DNA of 32,052 nucleotides from a virus (Duplodnaviria; Heunggongvirae; Uroviricota; Caudoviricetes), in IMG/VR virus record IMGVR_UViG_2548876861_000008, one strand, 5' to 3'. This document shows positions 1-24,251 of this stretch, one piece after another. Positions within the stretch are counted from its first letter, which is position 1. Each line of letters opens with the position of its first letter. The position numbers were made by a program, and so were the translations under genes. The notes under the pieces are model-generated. The model saw nothing but the letters and a program-made list of their open reading frames with translations. It made no database searches and was not told where the DNA came from.

Positions 1-1011
1 TTATAACGTCACTCCGCCTTTTAGTGGATTCAGAGCGACGGCATTTTGCAGATAGTCAGGCGCAAGGTGCGCATAGGCCATCGTCTGCTGAATGCTCGCA
101 TGTCCCAGAATCTGTTGCAGTGCGATTATATTGCCCCCATTCATCATGAAATGGCTTGCGAATGTATGCCGCAGGATGTGGGTTGCCTGATTGGGTGGTA
201 TATCAGGTTTCACTCTGCGTAAAATCCCGCAAAATTTCTCATAATCAACTTTGAATAATTTGGCGCTGGCCTCCTCTTTAACTTTTTTCTCCAGTTCCTC
301 AGAAATCGGCACGGTTCGCTTTTTACCGTTTTTGGTTTTCAGGAAGGTAACCCTGCAATTTGTAATCTGTGCTGGTTTTAGCGTGGCAACTTCCGTCCAT
401 CTTCCTCCAGTGCTCAGACATAAAAGCGCGACAAGTAAGTCATCACCAGCCAAAACATTTAACAGTTTTTCGATTTCTGCTTTTTCCAGGAACGTCATTT
501 CAGGGTTGGCCTCCGCCAGTGGCGGCAGTCCGTGAATTGGGTGTTGCCCGGAAAATTCATCCAATTGAATTAATTTTGTGAACATGCCGGATAATCGGTA
601 CATGTCACGGTTTATCGTTGCGGCACTGATACCATCACGTAGTCGCATGGAACGATAATCCATCAAAGCCCTTTTGCTCATCCTGCTCACTGGTATATCA
701 CCTATGCCGCTGATGGTTTTGAGTAGATGATTAAACTCTTTTGTTCCATGCTCGTGGTTTTGCCCGTGATATTTCCACCAGATGTCCAGCAACTCACTCA
801 AAGTCCGGCGGTCTGCTCGCTGGCCTCCCCATTCTTTCTGACTGGCATTGGCGATTGTGTATCGCTCAAATGCTAGTGCTTCAGCTTTTCTTTCGAATTT
901 CCTGCGGATGCGTTTTCCGTCGCGACCGCGAGGTCTAATGTCCACTTCATAGCGACCATCATCGAGCTTCTTAATTGCCATAAGAAAGCCCTCCGGCGCT
1001 GTATTCACCAT
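1..1011 (-). CDS. int: P2-family tyrosine integrase; window begins at its stop codon
   Basis: 336-aa ORF; C-terminal catalytic region (HILRHTFASH ... MAYAHL) typical of tyrosine recombinases; sits at prophage end next to the C repressor as in P2. Confidence 0.9.
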   Translation of the reverse strand: MVNTAPEGFLMAIKKLDDGRYEVDIRPRGRDGKRIRRKFERKAEALAFERYTIANASQKEWGGQRADRRTLSELLDIWWKYHGQNHEHGTKEFNHLLKTISGIGDIPVSRMSKRALMDYRSMRLRDGISAATINRDMYRLSGMFTKLIQLDEFSGQHPIHGLPPLAEANPEMTFLEKAEIEKLLNVLAGDDLLVALLCLSTGGRWTEVATLKPAQITNCRVTFLKTKNGKKRTVPISEELEKKVKEEASAKLFKVDYEKFCGILRRVKPDIPPNQATHILRHTFASHFMMNGGNIIALQQILGHASIQQTMAYAHLAPDYLQNAVALNPLKGGVTL

Positions 1012-1050
1012 CTTGGTAGCAAATGGTGAAAATGTAATCTTTATATAGAG

Positions 1051-1344
1051 TTAGCCAATCCTTTTCGCGGAGTGGTTGGACTCTGTTGACTCTGGCCCAA
1101 TGTGCGCGAGAGCCGGTGCGATTTGTCCTGCGTCCGGCGCGGTTTTATCTGTCATAAGCCATAGAGCATATTTTTGGAATGTGGGATGCATAGTGATTTT
1201 TAGCAAAGCTGTGCCACCGGGTTCAAAGTTTCCTCCTTCATATTTTTTAAGTGTGCTTAGCGGTAACTCTATGATTTCACAGAATTTTGATTGGCTTAGC
1301 CCTTCAGCCTCACGCAAGGCCTTAATCTTTTCGCTTAATTTCAT
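1051..1344 (-). CDS. C: P2 C-type immunity repressor (HTH)
   Basis: 97-aa ORF with N-terminal HTH-like segment (LSQSKFCEIIELPLSTLKKYE) and C-terminal QIAPALAH motif recalled from P2 C; divergent from cox. Confidence 0.8.
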   Translation of the reverse strand: MKLSEKIKALREAEGLSQSKFCEIIELPLSTLKKYEGGNFEPGGTALLKITMHPTFQKYALWLMTDKTAPDAGQIAPALAHIGPESTESNHSAKRIG

Positions 1345-1385
1345 TTGACATGGTGCCTATATAGGGACTAAATTCCCTCAAAACT

Positions 1386-1403
1386 GGAACCTATATAGGT
1401 TCC
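1386..1403. promoter_or_regulatory. Perfect 18-bp palindrome (ggaacctatataggttcc) in the C/cox intergenic switch region; candidate operator. Its 10-mer core cctatatagg also occurs at 1356..1365
   Basis: Read directly from sequence; location between divergent repressor and cox genes; TTGACA hexamer at 1345..1350. Confidence 0.4.
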
Positions 1404-1465
1404 ATTGATTTGAGAATAAACCAGCGTCTAAACGGTTTTGAGTGGTTTAGAAAGGGCTGGATCCT

Positions 1466-1753
1466 ATGAGGGTACCATATATGGACGCTGAAAATTATGT
1501 GATTCAGTATCCGCTTGATGCGGTTCATGTGGATAAATTTGCTGATTTATTAGGGAAGCCAAAGACAGCCGTCAGTGAAATGGTGAAGGCAAATAAATTA
1601 CCAATTATTGAATTGCGTGATCCTTGCAAACCGAAGGCTCGTGCCGGTGAAAAATGGGTTTTCATTCCTGAGTTTAATCGCGCTGTACGTGAGGCGTTTT
1701 ATAACCGACCGGTTGAACAGCGTGATGCATGGCTTTTGTGGATGGGGTTGTGA
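1466..1753 (+). CDS. cox: Cox-like excisionase / transcriptional switch protein
   Basis: 95-aa ORF ending RDAWLLWMGL, resembling the recalled P2 Cox C-terminus; first gene of rightward early operon. Confidence 0.75.
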   Translation: MRVPYMDAENYVIQYPLDAVHVDKFADLLGKPKTAVSEMVKANKLPIIELRDPCKPKARAGEKWVFIPEFNRAVREAFYNRPVEQRDAWLLWMGL

Positions 1754-1755
1754 TT

Positions 1756-1926
1756 ATGAATGAGCCGCGTTGTATTGCTCAGTTATTGCGTAACGAAAGC
1801 CCCAGGGCGATTGACTTCACCATCACCCACGGGAAGGGACGCAAGGGAATCATTATCCGCACCAAAAAACAGAGTCCGTTAAAAAAGGCTCTGACCTTTC
1901 TGAAAAGCCGGAGGGGCTGGAAATGA
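1756..1926 (+). CDS. small early hypothetical protein (P2 orf78 position)
   Basis: ATG at 1756 overlaps cox stop (tgATTATGa); stop overlaps start of next gene; position conserved in P2 early operon. Confidence 0.45.
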   Translation: MNEPRCIAQLLRNESPRAIDFTITHGKGRKGIIIRTKKQSPLKKALTFLKSRRGWK

Positions 1927-2423
1927 CAGTGATGACGCTCAATCTCGTTGAAAAACAGCCAGCAGCTATGCGCCGGATAATTGGCAAGCATCTTGCCGTC
2001 CCTCGCTGGCAGGATACATGTGATTATTATAATCAGATGATGGAACGCGAACGGCTAACGGTTTGCTTCCATGCGCAGTTAAAACAGCGTCACGCAACGA
2101 TGCGTTTTGAAGAAATGAACGACGTCGAACGTGAACGGCTGGTTTGTGCAATTGATGAATTGCGTGGGGCATTCTCAAAACGCCGTCAGGTTGGCGCAAG
2201 TGAGTATGCATATATTAGTTTTTTAACAGTCAGTCAGCGTCGTACTTTATTTATGCATGCCGGATTGACTGAAAAAGAATTCAACCAGCCATACTGGCGA
2301 ATTAATGAAGAATCATGTTACTGGCGTGATGCTTTATTCCGTGCATTACGTGAATTATTCAGCCTGTTTGAGTATGCACCGACAATTCTGACGTCGGTAA
2401 AACCAGAGCAATATCTGCATTAA
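1923..2423 (+). CDS. B: replication protein B (helicase-loader-like)
   Basis: 166-aa ORF, same length and operon position as P2 gpB. Confidence 0.7.
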   Translation: MTVMTLNLVEKQPAAMRRIIGKHLAVPRWQDTCDYYNQMMERERLTVCFHAQLKQRHATMRFEEMNDVERERLVCAIDELRGAFSKRRQVGASEYAYISFLTVSQRRTLFMHAGLTEKEFNQPYWRINEESCYWRDALFRALRELFSLFEYAPTILTSVKPEQYLH

Positions 2424-2486
2424 GTAATTAACCAGAGTTTTTAACGCACTTAATCGTGCGGGGCTTCTTTTTGCCTGGAGAAAGTC

Positions 2487-2711
2487 ATGCATACAGTTTC
2501 TGAAAATCAGTGCGGTAAATACGCATTACTGCTGCAACAGGCCAGAACCGAAGCACAGGCCGACGCTGCGACGCGCTTTTCTTCTCATCTTGACGCCATG
2601 ATTCGCCACATCACAAAGGCGGAGTTATCCCGCGTGGAGATAGTCGAGCTGCTCAGTCAGGAGTCGGAAAAATTTCACAATATCGGATTGTCTCGTGGGG
2701 AGGTGCTTTGA
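2487..2711 (+). CDS. early hypothetical protein (P2 orf80 position)
   Basis: 74-aa ORF in early operon, stop overlaps next start. Confidence 0.45.
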
Positions 2712-3013
2712 TGTCCTGTTCTCATTCAGTTGTATTACTGAATAACGCCTTAAAAATCGCCGTTATGAAAAATGGCGATTTATCTCTTATTCAACTTGGT
2801 CTTGATAAAGAAAAACGCGAAATAACTGAGTCTGTTATCGCGATTTATCAGAACGAATTAAATCTCCTGTCTGATGTGGTCAATTTACTTGTTAAACGCG
2901 CTGTATTTCACAAGAAAATCTCCTCCGTGGATGAACTGACAAAATTAACGACAGAAATTGCCAGCTATTGCGCTGATGAATTTAAAAAACTTAACGACAA
3001 AAGGAGCTGGTAA
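2708..3013 (+). CDS. early hypothetical protein (P2 orf81 position)
   Basis: 101-aa ORF, translationally coupled to neighbours. Confidence 0.45.
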
Positions 3014-3237
3014 TGCCGGACAACGTAGATTTTATTCAGGAACAACAGGCTGAATTACTGGAGCGCCAGATTAACGCGGCAAGGGTAAAACATTACGGTG
3101 CTTCTGCGCTGGTTTGCGAAGAGTGTGACGCGCCAATACCTGCTGCACGTCGTGCGGCTTATCCGTCAGCCACGCGTTGTGTTTCCTGTCAGTCAGTCTT
3201 TGAAGCAAAAAACAAACATTACCGGAGAACGGCATGA
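3013..3237 (+). CDS. TraR/DksA-family C4 zinc-finger protein (P2 orf82 position)
   Basis: 74-aa ORF with CxxC...CxxC (CEECDAPIP...RCVSCQ) arrangement. Confidence 0.6.
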   Translation: MPDNVDFIQEQQAELLERQINAARVKHYGASALVCEECDAPIPAARRAAYPSATRCVSCQSVFEAKNKHYRRTA

Positions 3238-3509
3238 GTATTCGTATTGAAATTGGCGAACATTATGTCGTTACCAGTGACAGCTTTCAGTTTATTCTCC
3301 ACGAGAAAAAGAGAGCTGAAAGCGGTAAAAACGCCGGTCAGGAATGGCTGTCGGTGGTTGGTTATTACCCGAAATTAAGCCAGCTCGTTTCCGGCCTGAT
3401 GCATCACGATATTCTGACCGGAAGCGCAAAGTCTTTTGCTGATTTAAACGCGCAGGTTGAGCAACTCAGCAAGCGTTGTTCAGAGGCTTTTGGCTCATAT
3501 GGCCGTTAA
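3234..3509 (+). CDS. early hypothetical protein (P2 orf83 position)
   Basis: 91-aa ORF immediately upstream of gpA. Confidence 0.45.
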   Translation: MSIRIEIGEHYVVTSDSFQFILHEKKRAESGKNAGQEWLSVVGYYPKLSQLVSGLMHHDILTGSAKSFADLNAQVEQLSKRCSEAFGSYGR

Positions 3510-5775
3510 AGCCTCCGGGCGTTTTGTCCCTCCGTCAGCATTTGCCGCAGGCACCGGTAAGACGTTTACCGGTGCTTATGCATGGAACGCGCCACGCGAG
3601 GCCGTCGGGCGCGAAAGACCCCTTACACGTGACGAGATGCGTCAGGTGCAAGGTGTTTTATCCACGATTAACCGCCTGCCTTACTTTTTGCGCTCTCTGT
3701 TTACTTCACGCTATGACTACATCCGGCGCAATAAAAGCCCGGTGCACGGGTTTTATTTCCTCACATCCACTTTTCAGCGTCGTTTATGGCCGCGCATTGA
3801 GCGTGTGAATCAGCGCCATGAAATGAACACCGACGCGTCGTTACTGTTTCTGGCAGAGCGTGACCACTATGCGCGCCTGCCGGGAATGAATGACAAGGAG
3901 CTGAAAAAGTTTGCTGCCCGTATCTCATCGCAGCTTTTCATGATGTATGGGGAACTCAGCGATGCCTGGGTGGATGCGCATGGCGAAAAAGAATCGCTGT
4001 TTACGGATGAGGCGCAGGCTCACCTGTATGGTCATGTTGCTGGCGCTGCACGTGCTTTCAATATTTCCCCGCTCTACTGGAAAAAATACCGTAAAGGGCA
4101 GATGACCACGAGGCAGGCATATTCTGCCATTGCCCGTCTGTTTAACGATGAGTGGTGGACTCATCAGCTTAAAGGCCAGCGTATGCGCTGGCATGAGGCG
4201 TTACTGATTGCTGTCGGGGAGGTCAATAAAGACCGTTCTCCTTATGCCAGTAAACATGCCATTCGTGATGTGCGTGCACGCCGCCAGGCAAATCTGGAAT
4301 TTCTTAAATCGTGTGACCTCGAAAACAGGGAAACCGGCGAGCGCATCGACCTTATCAGTAAGGTGATGGGCAGTATTTCTAATCCTGAAATTCGCCGGAT
4401 GGAGCTGATGAACACCATCGCCGGTATTGAGCGTTACGCCGCCGCAGAGGGTGATGTGGGGATGTTTATCACGCTGACCACGCCGTCAAAGTATCACCCG
4501 ACACGTCAGGTCGGAAAAGGAGAAAGTAAAACCGTCCAGCTTAATCACGGCTGGAACGATGAGGCATTTAATCCAAAGGATGCGCAGCGTTATCTCTGCC
4601 GTATCTGGAGCCTGATGCGCACGGCATTCAAGGATAATGATTTACAGGTCTACGGTTTGCGAGTCGTCGAGCCACACCACGACGGAACGCCGCACTGGCA
4701 TATGATGCTTTTTTGTAATCCACGCCAGCGTAACCAGATTATTGAAATCATGCGTCGCTACGCGCTCAAAGAGGATGGCGACGAAAGAGGAGCTGCGCGA
4801 AACCGTTTTCAGGCAAAACACCTTAACCGGGGCGGTGCTGCGGGATATATCGCGAAATACATTTCAAAAAACATCGACGGCTATGCACTGGATGGTCAGC
4901 TCGATAACGATACCGGCAGGCCGCTGAAAGACACTGCCGCGGCTGTTACCGCATGGGCGTCAACGTGGCGCATTCCGCAATTTAAAACTGTTGGCCTGCC
5001 GACAATGGGGGCTTACCGTGAACTACGCAAATTACCTCGCGGCGTCAGCATTGCTGATGAGTTTGACGAACGCGTCGAGGCTGCACGCGCTGCCGCAGAC
5101 AGTGGCGATTTTGCGCTGTATATCAGCGCGCAGGGTGGGGCAAATGTCCCGCGCGATTGTCAGACTGTCAGGGTCGCCCGTAGTCCGTCGGATGAAGTTA
5201 ACGAGTACGAGGAAGAAGTCGAGAGAGTGGTCGGCATTTACGCGCCGCATCTCGGCGCGCGTCATATTCATATCACCAGAACGACGGACTGGCGCATTGT
5301 TCCGAAAGTGCCGGTCGTTGAGCCTTTGACTGTAAAAAGCGGCATCGCCGCGCCTCGGAGTCCTGTCAATAACTGTGGAAAGCTCACCGGTGGTGATACT
5401 TCGTTACCGGCTCCCACACCTTCTGAGCACGCCGCAGCAGTGCTTAATCTGGTTGATGACGGTGTTATCGAATGGAATGACCCGGAGGTCGTGAGGGCGC
5501 TCAGGGGCGCATTAAAACACGGACTGAGAACACCAAATCGTCAGCAAAGAGCCGGAAGCCCGTTAAAACCGCATGAAATAGCGCCATCGGCCAGAATGAC
5601 CCGGTCGGAACGAATGCAAATTACCCGTATCCGCGTTGACCTTGCTCAGAACGGTATCAGACCGCAGCGATGGGAGCTTGAGGCGCTGGCGCGTGGCGCG
5701 ACCGTAAATTATGACGGGAAAAAATTCACGTATCCGGTCGCTAATGAGTGGTCGGTTTTTTCAGTTAAACAATAA
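3499..5775 (+). CDS. A: rolling-circle replication initiator gpA (nickase)
   Basis: Long ORF; HWHMMLF motif and AAGYIAKYISKN tyrosine region typical of the phage A / phiX174-A initiator superfamily; start at 3499 (MAVKASG) gives about 758 aa, close to recalled P2 A; upstream in-frame ATG at 3457 is also possible. Confidence 0.85.
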   Translation: MAVKASGRFVPPSAFAAGTGKTFTGAYAWNAPREAVGRERPLTRDEMRQVQGVLSTINRLPYFLRSLFTSRYDYIRRNKSPVHGFYFLTSTFQRRLWPRIERVNQRHEMNTDASLLFLAERDHYARLPGMNDKELKKFAARISSQLFMMYGELSDAWVDAHGEKESLFTDEAQAHLYGHVAGAARAFNISPLYWKKYRKGQMTTRQAYSAIARLFNDEWWTHQLKGQRMRWHEALLIAVGEVNKDRSPYASKHAIRDVRARRQANLEFLKSCDLENRETGERIDLISKVMGSISNPEIRRMELMNTIAGIERYAAAEGDVGMFITLTTPSKYHPTRQVGKGESKTVQLNHGWNDEAFNPKDAQRYLCRIWSLMRTAFKDNDLQVYGLRVVEPHHDGTPHWHMMLFCNPRQRNQIIEIMRRYALKEDGDERGAARNRFQAKHLNRGGAAGYIAKYISKNIDGYALDGQLDNDTGRPLKDTAAAVTAWASTWRIPQFKTVGLPTMGAYRELRKLPRGVSIADEFDERVEAARAAADSGDFALYISAQGGANVPRDCQTVRVARSPSDEVNEYEEEVERVVGIYAPHLGARHIHITRTTDWRIVPKVPVVEPLTVKSGIAAPRSPVNNCGKLTGGDTSLPAPTPSEHAAAVLNLVDDGVIEWNDPEVVRALRGALKHGLRTPNRQQRAGSPLKPHEIAPSARMTRSERMQITRIRVDLAQNGIRPQRWELEALARGATVNYDGKKFTYPVANEWSVFSVKQ

Positions 5776-5945
5776 TGACTACTACTGCAGTGTTGTGGGA
5801 ATGTTATAGTGTTTGTGGAATTTTTCTATGAAAAACAATGAATTAATCTGTTTTTCATATTGAGCTAATTTTTTATGGCCACAGTTGTTAAAAAGTGAGA
5901 ACATAATCTTGTTCAAAACCTGCTTCTATATACGGAGGCTTTCGC

Positions 5946-5951
5946 TATAAT
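5946..5951 (+). promoter_or_regulatory. TATAAT -10-like hexamer upstream of the methyltransferase gene; strong Shine-Dalgarno AGGAGG at 5965..5970
   Basis: Read from sequence; no convincing -35 found. Confidence 0.3.
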
Positions 5952-5976
5952 ACGCGGTCGGTTTTAGGAGGGGATA

Positions 5977-6921
5977 ATGCCAACAGTAGTTTCACTTTTT
6001 TCTGGATGCGGTGGTTCCGATGCGGGGGTTTTGAGAGCCGGCTTTGATGTGCTTATGGCCAACGATATCTTGCCGTATGCGCGCGATGTTTATATTGCCA
6101 ATCATCCAGAAACTGATTACATATTAGGCAATATTGCTGATGTAACTACTTTTCCTAAATCTGATTTGCTGGTAGGTTGTTATCCATGTCAGGGATTCAG
6201 CCAGGGTGGTGCGCGTAAAGCCGATCGAAAAATTAATACTCTTTATTTAGAGTTTGCTAGAGCTTTAAACAATATAAAGCCTAAAGCTTTTATAGTAGAA
6301 AACGTGTCTGGTATGGTTAGAAAAAATTTTGAGCATTTGTTATCTGACCAGATCAGGGTTTTTACTGAAGCAGGTTATACTGTTTCCGCAAAAGTTTTAA
6401 ATGCGGCTGAATATGGAGTAGCGCAGGAAAGAAAAAGAATATTTATCGTAGGAATCCGTAATGATTTCAAAGTTAAGTACGAGTTCCCTCAGCCAACTCA
6501 TGGGCCAGCAACTGGCGTCAACTATGTTACTATTAAAGATGCTATAGGGCATTTACCTGAATGGCCAGAAGGTGAATTTTATGATATGGGATTCCATTGG
6601 TATTATATGTCTCGCAATCGTCGCCAGGATTGGGATCAAATTTCAAAGACAATAGTTGCTAATGCAAGGCATATGCCGTTGCATCCTGTCAGTCCTCCGA
6701 TGGAGAAAGTAAGAACTGATGAATGGAGATTTGTTGAGGATCGGAGAGCTCGCAGATTCAGTTTTCGAGAGGCAGCACTATTACAAGGGTTTGAGGATCT
6801 AGTGTTTCCAGAAACAAATGCTGCAAGTCTTGGCATGAAATACACGGTGGTTGGTAATGCAGTGCCTCCGCCGCTTTTTGAAGCTGTAACGAAGGCATTG
6901 CCAATAGAATTATGGGATTGA
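5977..6921 (+). CDS. DNA (cytosine-5)-methyltransferase (Dcm-like C5-MTase)
   Basis: 314 aa; motif I FSGCGG, motif IV PCQGFS, motif VI ENV (FIVENVSGM), QERKR, C-terminal GNAVPPP motif X. Confidence 0.85.
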   Translation: MPTVVSLFSGCGGSDAGVLRAGFDVLMANDILPYARDVYIANHPETDYILGNIADVTTFPKSDLLVGCYPCQGFSQGGARKADRKINTLYLEFARALNNIKPKAFIVENVSGMVRKNFEHLLSDQIRVFTEAGYTVSAKVLNAAEYGVAQERKRIFIVGIRNDFKVKYEFPQPTHGPATGVNYVTIKDAIGHLPEWPEGEFYDMGFHWYYMSRNRRQDWDQISKTIVANARHMPLHPVSPPMEKVRTDEWRFVEDRRARRFSFREAALLQGFEDLVFPETNAASLGMKYTVVGNAVPPPLFEAVTKALPIELWD

Positions 6922-6928
6922 TAAGCTA

Positions 6929-7924
6929 TTAAGGCTCTGGATTTAATGTATAAAGCTCTTCCTCAAATTCGCGAAACCAATCAGAGGTAGTTATCGCTTC
7001 CCATTGGTTTGCCTTATCAAGTAGATATATGATTCTCAACCTATCTAATAATAATACCCCAGCGGTTGCGTGTGTGCTTACCCATTCGCCATTTGCTTCC
7101 CGATAGAAAACAGGCGTGAACATTGTTGATGGATGCTGGAACGCAATTTGGAAATAGGTGGTCAGTTTTAACACGTTAGCCTCTAATGTTTTGCTTGGCC
7201 ACCCTGTTTCTTGTGCACCACATTGACCAAGAATTCCATAGTTGCTAGTTTGACCATCAGGAAATTCCACTGTAGCAATTAGGTCAAACCCGGCATCACC
7301 AGATGTGGGAGCTCTATTTATTTCCCTTGTGTTTAAACTACAAACTCCAAGATCTTTTCCTAAAGTTTGTAGAGCTGTCCGAAGATTTGTTCCATAATAA
7401 TTTTGCCTATCATCGGAGTTAGCATCAAAAATTCTTACGGTGCCATGTGCAGGTAAGAGAGAAATCATTGCTACTTTACATACTCTGGCAAAGCTCTTTG
7501 CCCAACGTTGTGCTGCTCCTTTAATCGACTTAAAGGATCTAAGTCTAGAGCAGCAAAGAAGAAAAACATATATTCGTTGTTGTTGGTTTAGATTTTCTTT
7601 AATAATTATCTCATCACCTGAAATTATAAATGGATATATTTTGCCAAGAGCACTTTCTCTATATTCGAGTTGTGTCCAAACATCTTCGAGTTGCTCTTCA
7701 AAACGATCATTTCTCTCAGCGTCTCCATTAATTTCTTCTTCAGAATTACATTCTTCATCAATTTCTTCAACGCTTGTTATGCCGAATTTTCTTACTGAAT
7801 CTAAATCATTTTTATGTAGTGAGTTACGTCCGGTATAATTAATTACCGTGAGTAACTCGGCTAAATCTGCAAACAAATGAGGAGAGTTGGGATGCATAAC
7901 TCCTACTTCAAAAGTCATCATCAC
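6929..7924 (-). CDS. hypothetical protein, second gene of cargo operon; function unknown
   Basis: 331-aa ORF on minus strand, 17-bp overlap with upstream gene; AT-rich codon usage unlike the phage backbone; no motif I can assign. Confidence 0.6.
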   Translation of the reverse strand: MMMTFEVGVMHPNSPHLFADLAELLTVINYTGRNSLHKNDLDSVRKFGITSVEEIDEECNSEEEINGDAERNDRFEEQLEDVWTQLEYRESALGKIYPFIISGDEIIIKENLNQQQRIYVFLLCCSRLRSFKSIKGAAQRWAKSFARVCKVAMISLLPAHGTVRIFDANSDDRQNYYGTNLRTALQTLGKDLGVCSLNTREINRAPTSGDAGFDLIATVEFPDGQTSNYGILGQCGAQETGWPSKTLEANVLKLTTYFQIAFQHPSTMFTPVFYREANGEWVSTHATAGVLLLDRLRIIYLLDKANQWEAITTSDWFREFEEELYTLNPEP

Positions 7925-9068
7925 CTCTGCTATTTTTCTCTGCTATTTCAGAACCTATAAGCTTAATATGTTTATTGATTCTTCGTGCTACTTCATGGGC
8001 CTGTCTATCATACTCTACCGTGGCAACCATGCCTGCTGCATCTATCAAAGCTGCTTCAACTTGATAAAGTAACTGGAGAAAGTCCTTAGTAATATCAGAT
8101 GTCAATTGATAGGCAACTGCGAGTGGAGCCCCCATTCGGAATTGCTCCAATGCCTTAGGGCTACTTACAACAGCAGCTAGTTCTCTTAAATTACGTGATT
8201 CTCCTACACGAGTTTTTTTATCCTCGCCTTTTTTATATAACCATTCAGTTAGTTCTTTTATTTCTTTGTTCTTTAAACTCTTAGAATTGATGATAGGATG
8301 ACTTGGTATTGTGTCTCCATCGTCTTCGATTGAAACTCCGACAAACTGGCCTAACCGCTCATCAGCAAGTGCTGTTGATAATACTGAAAATTTAATCGTT
8401 TCTTCATCTAGCTTTTCAATACCATAAAAATCATTTTTTTTAATGATTTCATACACCGCTAAAGCGTCTAGGTTACGCTTGATATGATCCCTACGACTGC
8501 CAATAGCTCTGGCAACCTCATAGTAGCGTAGCATTGGATCCAGATTTGCATTGGTATAATCAAAAAGCTGTTTAATATATCGAGCTTTTGATAAGGGTTC
8601 CCATTGTTTGACACCAGTAATATGTCTGAAACCAAGGTACGGAAGAATCTCTTCTCTTGTTTGGCGCTCAATGACAGGAACACGATCGACCGTATGTTTT
8701 GCATTTGATGCAATTTCTCGTAGTCGAGCACTTGGATTTTCACATAGTGTCGGATCGCGTAATAATTTGACCGCGGATAGGCGACGGTTTCCTTCAACTA
8801 CAATGTACTTCCCCGGCGCTCCACTATCAGGAATGACAATCAATGGTTCTCCAGGGAAAAAACCATTTTCCGCAATAGCACTCATTAGGTCTTCGATAGA
8901 TGTTGAGGTTGCTATGTAGTTAATCATTCCCAATTGGTCACGAGACACGCCTTCAGGAAGTCTTGGGTTTTCTGTGTCAAGTTCCAAATCATCTAGCGGA
9001 ACATAAAGTATTTCTGAATCAGCAATCATCTGGATCTCCGTTGAACATGTCCACGAGAAGGAGCACAA
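7908..9068 (-). CDS. ParB/Srx-fold (ParB N-terminal-like) domain protein, first gene of cargo operon
   Basis: 386-aa ORF; N-terminal region KYIVVEGNRRLSAVKLL resembles the ParB GxxRxxA box; long alpha-helical-looking C-terminal region. Confidence 0.6.
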   Translation of the reverse strand: MCSFSWTCSTEIQMIADSEILYVPLDDLELDTENPRLPEGVSRDQLGMINYIATSTSIEDLMSAIAENGFFPGEPLIVIPDSGAPGKYIVVEGNRRLSAVKLLRDPTLCENPSARLREIASNAKHTVDRVPVIERQTREEILPYLGFRHITGVKQWEPLSKARYIKQLFDYTNANLDPMLRYYEVARAIGSRRDHIKRNLDALAVYEIIKKNDFYGIEKLDEETIKFSVLSTALADERLGQFVGVSIEDDGDTIPSHPIINSKSLKNKEIKELTEWLYKKGEDKKTRVGESRNLRELAAVVSSPKALEQFRMGAPLAVAYQLTSDITKDFLQLLYQVEAALIDAAGMVATVEYDRQAHEVARRINKHIKLIGSEIAEKNSRGDDDF

Positions 9069-9255
9069 AGTTATTTCATAACATGCAATATACTCATTCT
9101 GTAGCCATAAATGAATTATTCATGATGTAAGATTCGCGTTGATGTGCGTGAATTCGCAAGTAATTATACAGCAAGGTTTGATTGGGTATCGTCAGCACCA
9201 GTGCGGTTCCAACGTACTCATGCAACTGCATTAAAACCGCCCCATGAAGCGGGCG

Positions 9256-9274
9256 GGCGAGGCGGGGAAAGCAC
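9256..9274. other. cos cohesive-end site (19-nt ggcgaggcggggaaagcac)
   Basis: Exact match to the 19-nt cohesive end I recall for P2; lies just downstream of portal gene Q as in P2. Confidence 0.6.
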
Positions 9275-9415
9275 TGCGCGCTGGCGGTGGTGCTGATTTT
9301 ATTTTTTCAGCGTCTGAGCGCGTCGTGATGGCGTTTAGATTGTTAGCCGGGGCGTTGGTGTGTCTGCGGGCTGTTTTGTGCGGTGGTGAGCGTGTGAGAG
9401 CGTGATGGCGGGTTG

Positions 9416-9443: not shown

Positions 9444-10478
9444 TCAGCCGTTGTCAGTGTCCAGTGAGTAGTTTTTAAAGCGGATGACCTCCTGACCGAG
9501 CCAGCCGTTTATCTCGCGGATCCTGTCCTGTAACGGGATAAGCTCATTGCGGACAAAGACCTTTGCCACTTTCTCAATATCGCCCAGCGACCCGACGTTT
9601 TCCGGCTTGCCACCCATCAACTGAAAGGGGATGCGGTGCGCGTCAAGCAGGTCAGCGGCGCTGGCTTTTTTGATATTAAAAAAATCGTCCTTCGTTGCCA
9701 CTTCACTGAGCGGGATAATTTTAATACCGTCGGCTTTTCCCTGTGGGGCGTAGAGAAACAGGTTTTTAAAGTTGTTGCGGCCTTTCGACTTCACCATGTT
9801 TTCGCGAAGCATTTCGATATCGTTGCGGTCCTGCACGGCATCGGTGACGTACATGATGTATCCGGCATGAGCGCCGTTTTCGTAATACTTGCGGCGGAAC
9901 AGCGTGGCCGACTCATTCAGCCAGGCAGAGTTAAGGGCGCTGAGATATTCCGGCAGGCCGTACAGCTCCTGATTAATATCCGGCTCCAGCAGGTGAAACA
10001 CGGAGCCGGGTGCGAAGGCTGTCGGCTCGTTGAAGGACGGCACCCACCAGTAAACATCCTCCTCCACGCCACGACGGGTATATTTGGCCGGTGAGGTTTC
10101 CAGTCTGATTACCTTACCGGTGGTGCTGTAACGCTTTTCCAGAAACGCATTACCGAACACCAGAAAATCCAGCACAAAGCGGCTGAAATCCTGCTGGGAA
10201 AGCCACGGATGCGGGATAAATGTCGAGGCCAGAATATTACGTTTGACGTAAATCGGTGAGCTGTGATGCACGGCAGCACGCAGGCTTTTTGCCAGACCGG
10301 TAAAGCTGACCGGTGGCTCATACCATCTGCCGTTACTGATGCACTCGACGTAATCCAGAATGTCACGGCGGTCGAGTACCGGCACCGGCTCGCCAAAGGT
10401 GAATGCCTCCATTTTCGGGGCGCTGGCAGTCATTGTTTTCACCGCTGGCTGCGGTGTTTTCCCTTTTTTCTTACTCAT
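9444..10478 (-). CDS. Q: portal protein
   Basis: 344 aa, same length and position as P2 gpQ; stop/start coupled with P. Confidence 0.9.
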   Translation of the reverse strand: MSKKKGKTPQPAVKTMTASAPKMEAFTFGEPVPVLDRRDILDYVECISNGRWYEPPVSFTGLAKSLRAAVHHSSPIYVKRNILASTFIPHPWLSQQDFSRFVLDFLVFGNAFLEKRYSTTGKVIRLETSPAKYTRRGVEEDVYWWVPSFNEPTAFAPGSVFHLLEPDINQELYGLPEYLSALNSAWLNESATLFRRKYYENGAHAGYIMYVTDAVQDRNDIEMLRENMVKSKGRNNFKNLFLYAPQGKADGIKIIPLSEVATKDDFFNIKKASAADLLDAHRIPFQLMGGKPENVGSLGDIEKVAKVFVRNELIPLQDRIREINGWLGQEVIRFKNYSLDTDNG

Positions 10479-20583: not shown

Positions 20584-21187
20584 TTCGCGACTGCTGCCGA
20601 CCGGCTCATCACCGCTTGAAGTCGCTGCCGCAAAAGCCTGTGCGGAAATTGAAAAAACGCCGGTCAGTATTCGTGAGCTGTGGAACCCGGACACCTGTCC
20701 GGCAAATCTGCTGCCGTGGCTGGCGTGGTCATTTTCGGTTGACCGCTGGGATGATAAGTGGCCGGAAGCGACAAAACGCGCTGTTATCCGCGATGCGTAT
20801 TTCATTCACTGCCATAAGGGCACTATAGGCGCAATCCGGCGTGTGGTGGAGCCGCTCGGCTATCTGATTGAGGTGAGGGAGTGGTGGCAGCTCAACGAGG
20901 AGCCGGGGACGTTCCGCATCGTTGTTGGCGTGCTTGAGCAGGGTATTACCGAGGAAATGTATCAGGAGCTGGAGCGCCTCGTTGCTGATGCAAAACCGGC
21001 AAGCCGCCATCTGACGGGACTGGCTATCAGTTTAAGTACAACCGGCAACATTTTTGCCGGTGCGGGATGCTATCACGGTGACGCTCTGACGGTTTATCCC
21101 TACACCCCGGAGGCCATTATTGTCGGAGGGGATTATTTCCCGGCCTCGGCCATTCATTTAATTGATAACCTGAGAGTAAACGCATGA
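20576..21187 (+). CDS. I: baseplate/tail protein I
   Basis: 203-aa ORF between J and H; translationally coupled. Confidence 0.8.
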   Translation: MSDSRLLPTGSSPLEVAAAKACAEIEKTPVSIRELWNPDTCPANLLPWLAWSFSVDRWDDKWPEATKRAVIRDAYFIHCHKGTIGAIRRVVEPLGYLIEVREWWQLNEEPGTFRIVVGVLEQGITEEMYQELERLVADAKPASRHLTGLAISLSTTGNIFAGAGCYHGDALTVYPYTPEAIIVGGDYFPASAIHLIDNLRVNA

Positions 21188-22383
21188 CAGTGAAATACTA
21201 CGCCATTCTGACTAATCAGGGCGCAGCACGGCTGGCTAACGCGACGATGCTCGGCAGTAAGCTGAATCTGACGCAAATGGCCGTTGGTGATGCGAATGGT
21301 GTCTTGCCGACACCAGACCCGGCACAGACAAAACTGATTAACCAGAAACGCATCGCGCCGCTGAATCTTCTGAGTGTTGACCCGAACAACCAGAGCCAGA
21401 TTATTGCGGAGCAAATCATCCCTGAGAACGAGGGCGGATTCTGGATCCGTGAGATTGGGCTTTATGATGATGAAGGCGTACTCATTGCGGTGGCGAACTG
21501 CCCGGAAACGTACAAACCGCAGTTGCAGGAAGGCAGTGGTCGTACCCAGACTATCCGCATGATTCTGGTTGTCACGAATACCGAAGCTATCACGCTGAAA
21601 ATCGACCCGTCGGTGGTACTGGCGACCCGTAAATACGTGGATGATGAAGTCCTGGAATTAAAGCTGTATGTGGATGACCAGATGAGAAACCACATTGCCG
21701 CACAGGATCCTCATACCCAGTATGCGCAGAAACATAATCCGACATTTACCGGAGAACCAAAAGCGCCGACGCCTGCCGCAGGAAATAACACCACGCGGAT
21801 TGCGACCACTGAGTTTGTTCAGGCCGCTATTACCGCTCTGATTAACGGTGCGCCAGCCACGCTGGACACACTGAAAGAAATTGCCGCAGCCATTAACAAT
21901 GACCCGAAATTCAGTACCACCATTAACAATGCGCTGTCAGGTAAGCAGCCACTGGATGAGACGCTGACTCATTTGAGTGGAAAGGATGTTGCCGGTCTTC
22001 TCGCATACCTTGGTTTGGGAGAAGCGGCAAAACGGAATGTAGGAACAGGGGAAAATCAGATACCGGACATGACCTCTTTTGCCAGTGGTGATGGATGGAT
22101 GAAATTACCCAACGGGAAAATCCTGCAATATGGTCGTGGTGCGATTACGCCGACATTATCGACGCAAACAATGAGAATTACATTCAGCATCCCTTTTCCT
22201 AAAAAAGTGGACTGCGCCATGCTTACCCATTCTGGTGATGGTGGTGCGCCTTTAGGCGCTGGACGGGGATTCGTGATGACTGCAGAAGGTCCAACACTAA
22301 CCGGTTTTAATTCCGCTTACAGAACTGCATCAACCAGCTCCACAGTATCGATGAATTACAGTTGGTGGGCTGTTGGTGAGTAA
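21184..22383 (+). CDS. H: tail fibre protein H (currently expressed variable C-terminus)
   Basis: 399 aa; N-terminus has the conserved P2-H-like AVANCPETYKPQLQEGSGR region; 3' part lies inside the invertible segment. Confidence 0.85.
   Translation: MTVKYYAILTNQGAARLANATMLGSKLNLTQMAVGDANGVLPTPDPAQTKLINQKRIAPLNLLSVDPNNQSQIIAEQIIPENEGGFWIREIGLYDDEGVLIAVANCPETYKPQLQEGSGRTQTIRMILVVTNTEAITLKIDPSVVLATRKYVDDEVLELKLYVDDQMRNHIAAQDPHTQYAQKHNPTFTGEPKAPTPAAGNNTTRIATTEFVQAAITALINGAPATLDTLKEIAAAINNDPKFSTTINNALSGKQPLDETLTHLSGKDVAGLLAYLGLGEAAKRNVGTGENQIPDMTSFASGDGWMKLPNGKILQYGRGAITPTLSTQTMRITFSIPFPKKVDCAMLTHSGDGGAPLGAGRGFVMTAEGPTLTGFNSAYRTASTSSTVSMNYSWWAVGE
22010..22043. repeat. Left 34-bp inverted repeat / crossover site of the invertible tail-fibre segment (ttggtttgggagaagcggcaaaacggaatgtagg)
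   Basis: Exact reverse-complement copy at 23569..23602, verified base by base. Confidence 0.75.
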
Positions 22384-22394
22384 TTTTATTCAGG

Positions 22395-22847
22395 GTGATT
22401 TATATGAACGAATATGTTTATAGCGCAAGGCATAATGCTTTTTTCCCTGTGGATATGATTGATAAATATAAATCAGAGGGATGGGATTTATCAGACGCAA
22501 AGGAAGTAAATCAAAATATTATCAGTGAGTTTATGGCTGAACCGCCACAAGGAAAAATCCGTATTGCCGGAGATGATGGGCTGCCTGCGTGGGCAGATAT
22601 TCCTCCACCCACGCATGAAGAGCTTATTGAAATTACTGAATCAGAAAGACAGCTACTAATTAACCAGGCTAACGAATACATGAACAGCAAGCAATGGCCT
22701 GGCAAAGCAGCTATTGGTCGTCTGAAAGGTGAGGAACTGGCGCAATATAATTTGTGGCTGGATTACCTGGACGCACTGGAACTGGTGGGTACCTCCAGTG
22801 CTCCAGATATTGAATGGCCTACACCTCCGGTAACTCAGGCCAGCTAA
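22395..22847 (+). CDS. G: tail fibre assembly protein (active-orientation copy)
   Basis: 150-aa ORF directly after H; C-terminus (DIEWPTPP) parallels the convergent minus-strand copy. Confidence 0.75.
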   Translation: MIYMNEYVYSARHNAFFPVDMIDKYKSEGWDLSDAKEVNQNIISEFMAEPPQGKIRIAGDDGLPAWADIPPPTHEELIEITESERQLLINQANEYMNSKQWPGKAAIGRLKGEELAQYNLWLDYLDALELVGTSSAPDIEWPTPPVTQAS

Positions 22848-23244
22848 TCTCAGGAGCCGTCGAAGTGTCGACGGCTTTTACTTCTTTTTTGTAGTCCATC
22901 CAGGCAGATAGTTTTTCTTTATCTGTACTGCTAATATCACCAAGCATTAATTCCACTCGCCAGTCAGCTGTGACATTATCGGCATGAGCAAGTAACTGCA
23001 TTCGCTGATTTTCCGCACGTGCGACATAATCAATCGCCGGGGATTTTAGTACCGGTAAACCATTTTCATCTGACGTGATTAATTTACCCCCTTCCTGCTG
23101 TCCGGCAATTAATTCATTGTATAAGTCTGTACTTATCTCAACAATGTCAGCAGGCATGTCGCTGTTTATACCATCAAAGAAAAAACCATTAGTCGATTTT
23201 GAGAAATAAATCATAGATATACCTATACACCGATTGCTACCCAA
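22819..23244 (-). CDS. alternative tail fibre assembly protein (inverted-orientation copy)
   Basis: 141-aa minus-strand ORF convergent with G and overlapping it by about 29 bp; C-terminus (EISWPELPEV) similar to G. Confidence 0.7.
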   Translation of the reverse strand: MGSNRCIGISMIYFSKSTNGFFFDGINSDMPADIVEISTDLYNELIAGQQEGGKLITSDENGLPVLKSPAIDYVARAENQRMQLLAHADNVTADWRVELMLGDISSTDKEKLSAWMDYKKEVKAVDTSTAPEISWPELPEV

Positions 23245-23602
23245 AAACAGGATCTTTCATATTTGACAATTTCTCCCTGAGATATACCGCCAACAATTAT
23301 ATAGAACTGTGATTTGCTGATATCAGAACAGTTCGCTATGCCCATTGCAGATATACCAGCCACCGACGTTGTATGTGGCACAGCCAACAGCGCAAGTGAA
23401 CGATTTGGGAATGTTACCGGGTAAGTCACCGTATAGTTTGATGCTCCACTGACAATACCCCACTGAATAATCAGACCTGAAGGAAGTTTTTGAAAACCCG
23501 TTGATGAAAGTGAACTGGCAAACGCCGCCATATCCGGAATTTGGTTTTGCCCGTTACCTACATTCCGTTTTGCCGCTTCTCCCAAACCAACGTTTATGAA
23601 AA
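23223..23602 (-). CDS. alternative tail-fibre C-terminal cassette (promoterless; would fuse to H constant region after inversion)
   Basis: Minus-strand ORF begins with the same LGLGEAAKRNVG peptide encoded by the inverted repeat and ends in a different receptor-binding-like tail. Confidence 0.6.
23569..23602. repeat. Right 34-bp inverted repeat / crossover site
   Basis: Reverse complement of 22010..22043. Confidence 0.75.
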
Positions 23603-23657
23603 TGCAGAGATAACGGGCAAGTGGCATCATCTCCGGTTTTTATTCAGGGGGATGCTC

Positions 23658-24251
23658 ATGCTTATTGGCTATGTACGCGTGTCGACAAATGACCAGAACA
23701 CGGAATTGCAGCGTAACGCGCTGAAGTGCGCAGGATGTGAGCTGATTTTTGAGGACAAAATCAGCGGCACGAAGTCCGACAGGCCGGGACTGAAAAAACT
23801 GCTCAGGACATTATCGGAGGGGGATACACTGGTAGTCTGGAAGCTGGACCGGCTGGGGCGTAGTATGCGGCATCTGGTCATTCTGGTTGAGGAACTGCGC
23901 GAACGCGGCGTTAATTTTCGCAGCCTGACAGATGCTATTGATACCAGCACGCCGATGGGGCGTTTTTTCTTTCATGTGATGGGTGCCCTGGCTGAAATGG
24001 AACGAGAGCTCATTGTCGAGCGGACTCGGGCCGGGCTGGAAGCGGCCAGAGCCAAAGGTCGTATTGGTGGCAGACGTCCTAAACTCACCGCGAGTGAGTG
24101 GGAGCAGGCCGGGCGTTTGCTGGCTGCAGGGGAGTCACGTCAACGCGTGGCACTGATTTTTGATATTGGTCTGTCCACGCTCTATAAAAAATTTCCCTCA
24201 TCAGCGACAAAGAATAAATTGTGTCATCCCTTAGCCAACCGGGACAAATAG
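23658..24251 (+). CDS. Gin/Pin/Cin/Hin-family serine DNA invertase
   Basis: MLIGYVRVSTNDQN... N-terminus with catalytic serine, C-terminal HTH; immediately adjacent to right inverted repeat as gin is to the Mu G segment. Confidence 0.85.
   Translation: MLIGYVRVSTNDQNTELQRNALKCAGCELIFEDKISGTKSDRPGLKKLLRTLSEGDTLVVWKLDRLGRSMRHLVILVEELRERGVNFRSLTDAIDTSTPMGRFFFHVMGALAEMERELIVERTRAGLEAARAKGRIGGRRPKLTASEWEQAGRLLAAGESRQRVALIFDIGLSTLYKKFPSSATKNKLCHPLANRDK

Follow-up and report, generated by a model that had tools for sequence, protein, structure and literature searches.

Between the replication gene A (gpA) and the cos site of P2-like phages lies a cargo locus, the tin/old hotspot, and here we describe the contents of this locus in a virus genome of the class Caudoviricetes (IMG/VR record IMGVR_UViG_2548876861_000008; 32,052 nucleotides, which we will henceforth refer to in full as the window). 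The window as a whole is a P2-like phage genome, which shares approximately 98% identity with Yersinia phage HQ103 and with P2-like phages of Escherichia coli. Three long open reading frames (ORFs) are found between the gpA replication endonuclease gene (3457-5775) and the gene of the portal protein Q (9444-10478): one on the plus strand (5977-6921) and two on the minus strand (6929-7924 and 7908-9068), with 7 bp (6922-6928) separating the convergent stop codons. The G+C content is 0.35-0.43 over positions 5751-9250, compared with 0.52-0.59 on either side. A first-pass annotation, made from the DNA letters alone, had described an AT-rich island of three genes with these ORFs and this convergent gap (5776-9255) and had placed it at the P2 tin/old hotspot; all of these features are present, and the locus is the gpA-cos (tin/old) hotspot. 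The RefSeq annotation of identical DNA, together with PHROG alignments, places the minus-strand starts at 9029 and 7918, and the longest-ORF starts at 9068 and 7924 are probably too long. We refer to the resulting products as protein A (373 aa; 7908-9029) and protein B (329 aa; 6929-7918). The two genes do overlap, as had been noted, though by 11 nt from the probable starts (7908-7918, minus strand; ATGACTTTTGA) and not by 17 bp.

The plus-strand gene (5977-6921) encodes a C5-cytosine DNA methyltransferase (MTase), as had been recognised in the first-pass annotation; the protein has 314 aa and is M.HaeIII-like. Its product matches PF00145 with an E-value of 5.5e-65 across profile positions 2-322 of 324, matches TIGR00675 with 192 bits, and aligns full-length with M.HaeIII (residues 4-308, E = 1.4e-48); by these matches it is a complete, intact C5-cytosine methyltransferase. 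Orthology to Dcm was ruled out, given a score of 38 bits to the Dcm subfamily model against a cutoff of 710. The mth product of phage Wφ is 76% identical to the MTase of the window, and the MTases that adjoin the A-B pair in other genera score between 445 and 566 bits against it.

Protein A consists of an N-terminal ParB/Srx domain, a helix-turn-helix (HTH) domain and a helical C-terminal domain. In a Pfam scan it had no match above threshold, and none to DUF262 or DUF1524, and its match to the TIGR00180 ParB domain (E = 5e-8, 32.8 bits) fell under the curated cutoff of 58.45. The AlphaFold2 model of A is confident (mean predicted local distance difference test, pLDDT, of 88.8), and Foldseek aligned it with structures of ParB, KorB and Noc at E-values of 2e-6 to 1e-4 over about 250 columns with 14-21% identity, covering the N-terminal nucleotide-switch domain and the HTH domain. 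The weak profile match and these structural alignments uphold the ParB fold that had been assigned to this gene. The C-terminal 90 residues, which are helical, had no Foldseek counterpart in the ParB, KorB and Noc structures, which are themselves C-terminally truncated. A box II-like motif, VVEGNRRL, includes the invariant residues E79, G80, N81, R82, R83 and L84, i.e., both arginines are retained throughout, while the RRINKH motif (Rx4-6H) of the C-terminal domain is confined to an enterobacterial subclade and is unconserved in the wider alignment. Protein A is also matched by 25 PADLOC PD-Lambda-5_A models, the best being PDLC04013 (E = 6.6e-29; residues 22-295 of the 386-aa ORF aligned to profile positions 7-277 of 440), with no match to profile positions 278-440, the region of the HEPN/DUF4145-like C-terminus. 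No LG[KR]GL-type ParA-binding motif was seen in the N-terminus of A, no ATPase family was found in Pfam, NCBIfam and PADLOC scans for a ParABS partner, and the neighbours of A are B and the MTase. A partition system was rejected for want of a ParA.

Protein B has no family of its own in Pfam, NCBIfam or PADLOC; it belongs to phrog_3984, for which no function is annotated. When 35 close and 28 distant members of its family were scanned against the same three databases, no family was assigned either, the sole signal being a weak match of 2 of the 28 distant members to the PADLOC model mREase_II (type II methyl-directed restriction endonuclease; E = 3e-4), and none of the 63 matched PF04471. The family is nonetheless large: B has 252 close homologues, and an exhaustive profile search recovered a superfamily of at least 1,228 clusters at 50% identity that has no Pfam model. 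The full-length members listed are all standalone proteins of about 300-365 aa. Residues invariant across the superfamily are D18, E21, R87, Y95, F97, Y117, F143, D208, D212, Q232, W240, K243, P269, D292, R293 and R295, several of which fall in a C-terminal block, GDAGFD(208-212)…GQCG(231-234)…W240..K243…DRLR(292-295), with the family pattern GDgGxD…GQC…W..K. Apart from this block, the N-terminal part is helical and carries a winged-helix module. The AlphaFold2 model of B is of moderate quality (pLDDT 75) and poor over residues 234-288.

Among all PDB sequences, the best hit of the B superfamily profile was the modification-dependent endonuclease MspJI, at a marginal E-value of 0.01. The aligned block reads SGDGGVDFIG…VLGQAKC in MspJI and sGDgGlDlVa…(f/l)GQC(a) in B, and in MspJI it corresponds to what we take to be the catalytic site. 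At the lysine position of the Q-x-K motif B has glycine or alanine (QCG/QCA), and the invariant K243 lies nine residues downstream. Comparisons by hhalign of the superfamily profile with EcoKMrr and with a profile of 23 Mrr catalytic-domain sequences were not significant, and an unfiltered HMMER comparison of B with the EcoKMrr family gave two weak, co-linear motif matches slightly over shuffled controls. We detected neither an SRA-like domain nor a HEPN or RNase signature in B. We therefore propose, as a working hypothesis, that B may be a divergent PD-(D/E)xK nuclease of the MspJI/Mrr-like type in which the Q-x-K lysine has been replaced, with K243 as the candidate substitute; we keep it at that level because the Mrr comparisons were not significant and the support comes mainly from the MspJI alignment and the invariant residues.

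Comparison across genomes, a check suggested with the first-pass annotation, shows that the three genes travel together. A and B adjoin in every locus with enough flanking sequence, and in 15 of the 23 loci fetched (L001-L023, some of them duplicate contigs) the gene directly after B is a closely related C5-MTase; scanning a single genome per species had contributed 15 further loci. On elements unrelated to P2, Pseudomonas nitroreducens and Burkholderia vietnamiensis both carry an integrase gene followed by A, B and a convergent C5-MTase. Phages Wφ and vB_EcoM-12474 have the trio where the window has it, in the P2 gpA-cos locus, Wφ with identical gene order and orientation; in Pseudomonas phage D14A it occupies another locus. 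Across these phages the divergence of the minus-strand genes is strong (identities of 34-35% for A and 23-25% for B): Wφ gp98 is 34% identical to A, and Wφ gp96 is 25% identical to B but a clear homologue (hhalign probability of 99.4%), as is the middle gene of D14A (E = 6e-50). The contrast in Wφ between an MTase conserved at 76% and partners conserved at 34% and 25% is the pattern expected of a cognate modification enzyme paired with a fast-evolving restriction component. Distant members of the B family adjoin C5-MTases as well, there in co-directional order and once followed by Vsr, a T:G mismatch endonuclease that is the usual companion of C5 restriction-modification (R-M) systems. Taken together, A, B and the MTase form a unit that recurs across Enterobacteria, Pseudomonas, Burkholderia, methylotrophs, three Peduoviridae lineages and unrelated mobile elements, and is thus conserved over distances at the level of phyla. 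The version of the cassette carried by the window is found in 48 of 5,426 complete E. coli genomes.

Several of these loci differ in their details. In L030 (2394-2864) and L031 (2425-2889), loci of a distant B branch, B, C5-MTase and Vsr follow one another co-directionally and an ArdC-like anti-restriction gene is near. In Methylophilaceae a gene for an HNH_2 (PF13391) endonuclease is placed between B and the convergent MTase (7165-7929 in L007 and 3165-4097 in L008), and it could be a second nuclease sharing the MTase or an alternative restriction partner. In a Methylovulum metagenome-assembled genome (MAG; L015) an IS607-type element with a serine recombinase and a TnpB-like gene (3259-5101) follows B at the usual place of the MTase; the contig next shows the end of an abortive-infection-like gene, and the A-B pair looks intact without an MTase. 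Yersinia phage L-413C, a well-known diagnostic phage, carries a decayed cassette: only a truncated A (L026, 207-1199; 62% identity over query residues 9-303), which runs into orf91, with neither B nor an MTase at the hotspot, so this phage can do without the cassette. Finally, Vibrio phage ValB1MD-2 (L028, 3132-5571) encodes, beside an integrase, a ParB-like protein of 252 aa, an unrelated protein of 265 aa and a co-directional adenine methylase. The middle gene of this PD-λ-5-like locus is not homologous to B, and the arrangement points to a broader group of ParB + X + MTase cassettes in which the middle gene can be exchanged.

Since each of the three genes has hundreds of conserved homologues and the gene order recurs in many genera, we consider them real genes and not chance ORFs; mean column identity within their close families is 59-65%. 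The origin of the island appears to lie elsewhere, given that it is AT-rich and lacks the GATC depletion of the phage backbone. Specifically, under a maximal-order Markov model the backbone (1-5775 plus 9256-32052) has 18 GATC sites where about 118 are expected (a ratio of 0.15), whereas the island (5776-9255) has 13 where 14 are expected, a pattern that fits a recent foreign origin of the island and long-standing GATC avoidance in P2-like genomes. The backbone is also poor in CTAG (3 vs. 8), while GGCC is only mildly depleted in it (observed/expected of 0.70) and so uninformative as a clue to specificity. A second AT-rich patch of the window (21184-24251, G+C of 0.42-0.49) is not a defence hotspot. 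A tail-fibre gene (21184-22383) lies there with the gene of its chaperone (22395-22847), the minus strand encodes an alternative fibre C-terminus in inverted orientation, again with a chaperone (22819-23630), and the interval 23541-24251 includes a serine invertase of the Hin/Gin type (MLIGYVRVSTNDQ…). The patch looks like an invertible host-range switch.

The intergenic MTase leader (5776-5976, plus strand) holds a TATAAT hexamer at 5946-5951 and an AGGAGG ribosome-binding site ahead of the ATG. It also contains a direct repeat of 17 nt (5789-5805 and 5808-5824, the copies 76% identical) and a perfect 11-nt inverted repeat (TATGAAAAACA at 5827-5837 and TGTTTTTCATA at 5849-5859); these repeats (5789-5859) are possible operator or other regulatory sites, and no gene for a C-protein-like regulator is present. 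The leader of the A-B operon (9030-9236, minus strand) is a likely promoter region, with a candidate TATAAT at 9168-9163. Neither hexamer was called as a full sigma-70 promoter by a consensus scan, the one before the MTase for want of a good -35 element, and we infer promoter function at both from the hexamers. Terminator-like hairpins bracket the island at 5734-5755 (plus strand) and at 9256-9237 and 9438-9423 (minus strand), and the first of these, at the end of gpA, may shield the island from early transcription. With its own TATAAT hexamers and these hairpins the island would be transcribed independently of both the early and the late phage operons. Its right-hand boundary (9237-9276) comprises the hairpin at 9256-9237 and, at 9258-9276, the sequence ggcgaggcggggaaagcac, which we take to be the P2 cos core.

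In the 11-nt overlap the same bases encode, in two frames, the end of A (…D D D F stop) and the start of B (M T F), so that A and B are probably translationally coupled. Overlaps of 11-14 nt between the two genes are also seen in other genera (6001-6014 in L002 and L005, 6001-6011 in L007). The acidic tail of A (…DDDF-stop) and the N-terminus of B (M-x-F) are both conserved and share these 11 nt, and the conservation of the tail may thus partly reflect a dual-coding constraint instead of a functional peptide.

The cassette is already catalogued. The first-pass annotation had called it the best candidate in the window for an undescribed system, but the trio with identical accessions (WP_001143636, WP_000142509 and WP_000559725) occurs at least 98 times among the P2-hotspot cassettes in a part of Table S5A of Rousset et al. 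(2022), which also lists an arrangement of "DUF262 + DNA_methylase + HEPN" at the same hotspot. In their Table S5B the corresponding system #2, "RM-like system", accounts for 1,136 of 18,150 loci and is the second most abundant class; its representatives are a B homologue, a Wφ-type ParB and a C5-MTase, and the class also lumps variants containing HEPN domains and D12 MTases. Nor is the further statement supported that none of the three genes is recognisable as part of a named system, given the 25 PD-Lambda-5_A models that match A. PD-λ-5 was validated by Vassallo et al. (2022) from E. coli ECOR7 (RCQ13837.1 and RCQ13838.1) and is included in PADLOC and DefenseFinder. Its two components are a ParBc protein of about 500 aa, whose C-terminus weakly resembles HEPN/DUF4145, and a D12 N6-adenine MTase (PF02086). 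It is described as a compact prophage "RM+Abi" (restriction-modification plus abortive infection) system with broad protection, stronger against the T-even phages, which are hypermodified, than against λvir or T7. The gpA-cos locus itself is a proven defence hotspot, and many cassettes there defend (Vassallo et al. 2022; Rousset et al. 2022); roughly one quarter of P2-like phages have a putative plasmid-partitioning system there (Rousset et al.). Operons of ParB, HEPN (MAE_28990 / RiboL-PSP) and methylase genes were predicted by Anantharaman et al. (2013), with a PrrC-like release of the effector as backup logic. A 2025 survey of the ParB-CTPase fold covers prophage ParB-methyltransferase fusions but not the trio of the window, and notes that ParB-methyltransferase combinations of unknown role are common in phages. 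We found no paper characterising the mechanism of the trio or of PD-λ-5.

We hypothesise that the island is a self-contained, horizontally mobile, three-part R-M-like defence cassette, related to PD-λ-5 and carried as "moron" cargo in the gpA-cos interval, and we give this reading a probability of roughly one half. The R-M-like interpretation offered with the first-pass annotation was in this respect reasonable. In its favour are the linkage of the three genes and the pairing of distant B relatives with C5-MTases, the match of A to models of a validated defence system, the fold of A and the motifs of A and B, the position in a defence hotspot together with the signs of foreign origin, and the label "RM-like" at which Rousset et al. 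(2022) had arrived independently. In the proposed scheme the MTase would place its mark at a short site on the DNA of both host and prophage. Protein A would bind DNA through its HTH domain and, like ParB-fold switches, would probably use a nucleoside triphosphate (NTP) to clamp or spread on unmarked DNA, where it would recruit or license B. Protein B, made in step with A through the overlapping genes, would be the endonuclease (winged helix plus the GDxGxD…Q…K block), damaging phage or plasmid DNA that arrives unmethylated. Relative to PD-λ-5, a separate B would take the place of the HEPN-like tail, and a C5-MTase that of the N6-adenine MTase. A more specific version, which is tentative and on balance rather unlikely, is that A and B together constitute a new nucleotide-dependent restriction enzyme: a CTP- or NTP-dependent ParB switch would load at unmethylated sites via the HTH domain, close into a sliding clamp and deliver or activate the PD-(D/E)xK protein B, with the cognate C5-MTase blocking loading on self DNA. 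If true, restriction driven by a ParB clamp would form a class of its own beside the type I and III enzymes, which run on ATP, and McrBC, which runs on GTP, and the working of PD-λ-5 would be explained too.

Three observations weigh against an R-M-like cassette. First, the A-B pair occurs without an adjacent C5-MTase in L010, L015 and L020, a set made up of a Methylococcaceae MAG (L010, where the pair lies next to HsdS), Crenothrix and the Methylovulum contig; in L010 and L020 there is no MTase within about 6 kb. L014 also lacks an adjacent C5-MTase, but its flank is too short to judge. Such pairs are unexpected for a classical restriction enzyme, unless a protecting MTase is encoded elsewhere in the genome. 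Second, the assignment of B as a nuclease is fragile. Third, Rousset et al. (2022) list the Wφ version of the trio (gp98-gp96-mth from E. coli W, under its native promoter in MG1655; pFR107, "RM-like") among the "additional tested systems" of their Table S2B, and Table S2A, with the "validated" systems, does not include it; their main text names three of eight extra P2 systems as active, the RM-like trio not among them. This negative is weakened by the strong divergence of pFR107 from the island of the window, by the small panel of eight phages used to challenge it and by the choice of MG1655 as host. MG1655 is mcrBC+ mrr+, and McrBC and Mrr restrict DNA containing 5-methylcytosine. The first-pass annotation had held that lack of a restriction phenotype would speak against a defence island, and a diverged homologue that was not validated with eight phages in an mcrBC+ mrr+ host touches this only weakly.

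The MTase-less loci can be accommodated differently if A and B form a modification-dependent (type IV-like) pair directed against modified foreign DNA and the MTase is functionally separate, e.g., shielding packaged DNA from host type II enzymes or making a mark that A-B ignores. The only detectable likenesses of B, namely MspJI, mREase_II and the weak EcoKMrr motifs, point in this direction, as do its winged-helix module, a feature shared with Mrr, the persistence of A-B without a neighbouring MTase, and the stronger protection by PD-λ-5 against hypermodified T-even phages than against λvir and T7. ParB-superfamily (DUF262) domains, moreover, drive the type IV enzymes GmrSD and BrxU. We nevertheless regard this explanation as unlikely: the linkage of A-B with an unrelated MTase would not persist through Enterobacteria, Pseudomonas, Burkholderia and methylotrophs, with the genes in either orientation and at times accompanied by Vsr, and such an MTase would not be expected to be far more conserved than A or B in the comparison with Wφ.

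Protein A could instead be a guardian of the SspE/PrrC type, sensing the methyl mark, or the action of a phage anti-restriction factor on methylation or on A itself, and then releasing B as an abortive-infection effector, with no site-specific restriction of unmethylated DNA. In SspE, a ParB-like (DUF262) protein, the stimulus is the DNA modification of the host itself. The designation of PD-λ-5 as compact RM+Abi (Vassallo et al.) and the predicted ParB + HEPN + methylase operons with PrrC-like release (Anantharaman et al. 2013) are likewise in keeping with a guardian. This seems quite unlikely, however, since B lacks a HEPN or RNase signature, the RRINKH motif of A is confined to the enterobacterial subclade, and no toxin-antitoxin-like features were detected.

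Another explanation gives the trio a mainly selfish role, as an addiction (post-segregational killing) module that stabilises itself and the prophage, with little or no defence. R-M-like gene pairs commonly act as addiction modules, the Wφ-type cassette has no reported defence, the cassette moves among many mobile elements, and the 7-bp gap between the convergent 3' ends could couple expression of killer and protector. On the other hand, cassettes of the gpA-cos hotspot often defend, the relative PD-λ-5 protects broadly, and the existence of A-B loci without an MTase argues against strong toxicity of A-B; we thus consider a mainly selfish role decidedly unlikely, while noting that addiction and defence are not mutually exclusive. 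Very improbable, lastly, is a non-defence phage role, for example in the epigenetic control of lysogeny or of replication or in ParB-type genome positioning: the full ParB N-terminal domain plus HTH architecture of A, the putative partitioning systems at this hotspot in roughly a quarter of P2-like phages (Rousset et al.) and the many phage ParB-methyltransferase combinations of unknown role speak for it, but a ParA or other ATPase partner and a visible LG[KR]GL-type motif are absent, the C-terminal domain of A is unmatched by the (C-terminally truncated) ParB, KorB and Noc structures, the trio also occurs in integrase-bounded islands and chromosomal defence contexts (HsdS in L010, HNH_2 in L007), and the trio is dispensable, given that only a remnant of A is left of it in L-413C.

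To what was catalogued before, the present analysis adds the deep conservation of the three genes as a unit, the size and motifs of the B family, a connection of B with the catalytic block of MspJI, the two domains of A with their likeness to ParB, KorB and Noc, and an explicit relation to PD-λ-5. Protein B, from a large family without annotation, is the product of the middle gene of the second commonest class of gpA-cos cargo in E. coli. As only A matches a defence model, current defence-finder models probably miss the trio. The ParB-CTPase fold is turning up well outside chromosome segregation (2025 survey), and a ParB-fold switch that works together with an MTase and a putative nuclease would give a concrete, testable example of that fold in immunity, one that would also clarify the validated PD-λ-5.

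How the trio compares with known systems can be set out as follows. The ParB, Noc and KorB clamps share with A the N-terminal ParB/Srx domain and HTH (the part of a ParABS system that Foldseek recovers here) and a box II-like GxRR. ParB box II is GERR, and A has GNRR, i.e., asparagine in place of glutamate; A further differs in lacking a ParA partner and ParA-binding motif, in its C-terminal domain and in its genomic context, with an MTase and a putative nuclease in place of a segregation locus. GmrSD, BrxU, SspE and the operons of Anantharaman et al. resemble the trio in coupling a ParB-superfamily protein and a nuclease effector to DNA modification. GmrSD, BrxU and SspE, however, have a DUF262 DGQQR motif and DUF1524/HNH, whereas A has EGNRR and no DUF262 match, and B is neither HEPN nor DUF1524/HNH. 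To MspJI and Mrr enzymes B shows a marginal likeness, in the GDxGxD + Q block (MspJI), the weak EcoKMrr motif matches and the winged-helix module, which Mrr has. They differ from B in the catalytic lysine of Q-x-K, and B has a linked MTase, a partner that type IV enzymes normally lack. As in type II R-M systems, the MTase is complete (full-length PF00145), but the putative endonuclease does occur without one nearby, in L010, L015 and L020.

Two systems are closer. System #2 of Rousset et al., represented by pFR107, is the same class of cassette at the same locus, with A and B of the window strongly diverged from the Wφ versions, and its middle gene was given neither a domain analysis nor a mechanism there. 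PD-λ-5 has a homologous ParB-fold protein (across the ParB, HTH and middle regions), a linked MTase and a compact prophage cassette, and is R-M-like according to its authors. It has two genes, however, where the window has three conserved ones with B always beside A; its A protein of about 500 aa ends in a HEPN-like tail, where the window has an A of 373 aa and a separate B of 329 aa in the effector position; and its MTase is a D12-class N6-adenine enzyme, whereas that of the window is a convergent C5 enzyme. As three of the four sequence-testable features of PD-λ-5 are absent from the trio, we file it as a variant of PD-λ-5 and not as a member.

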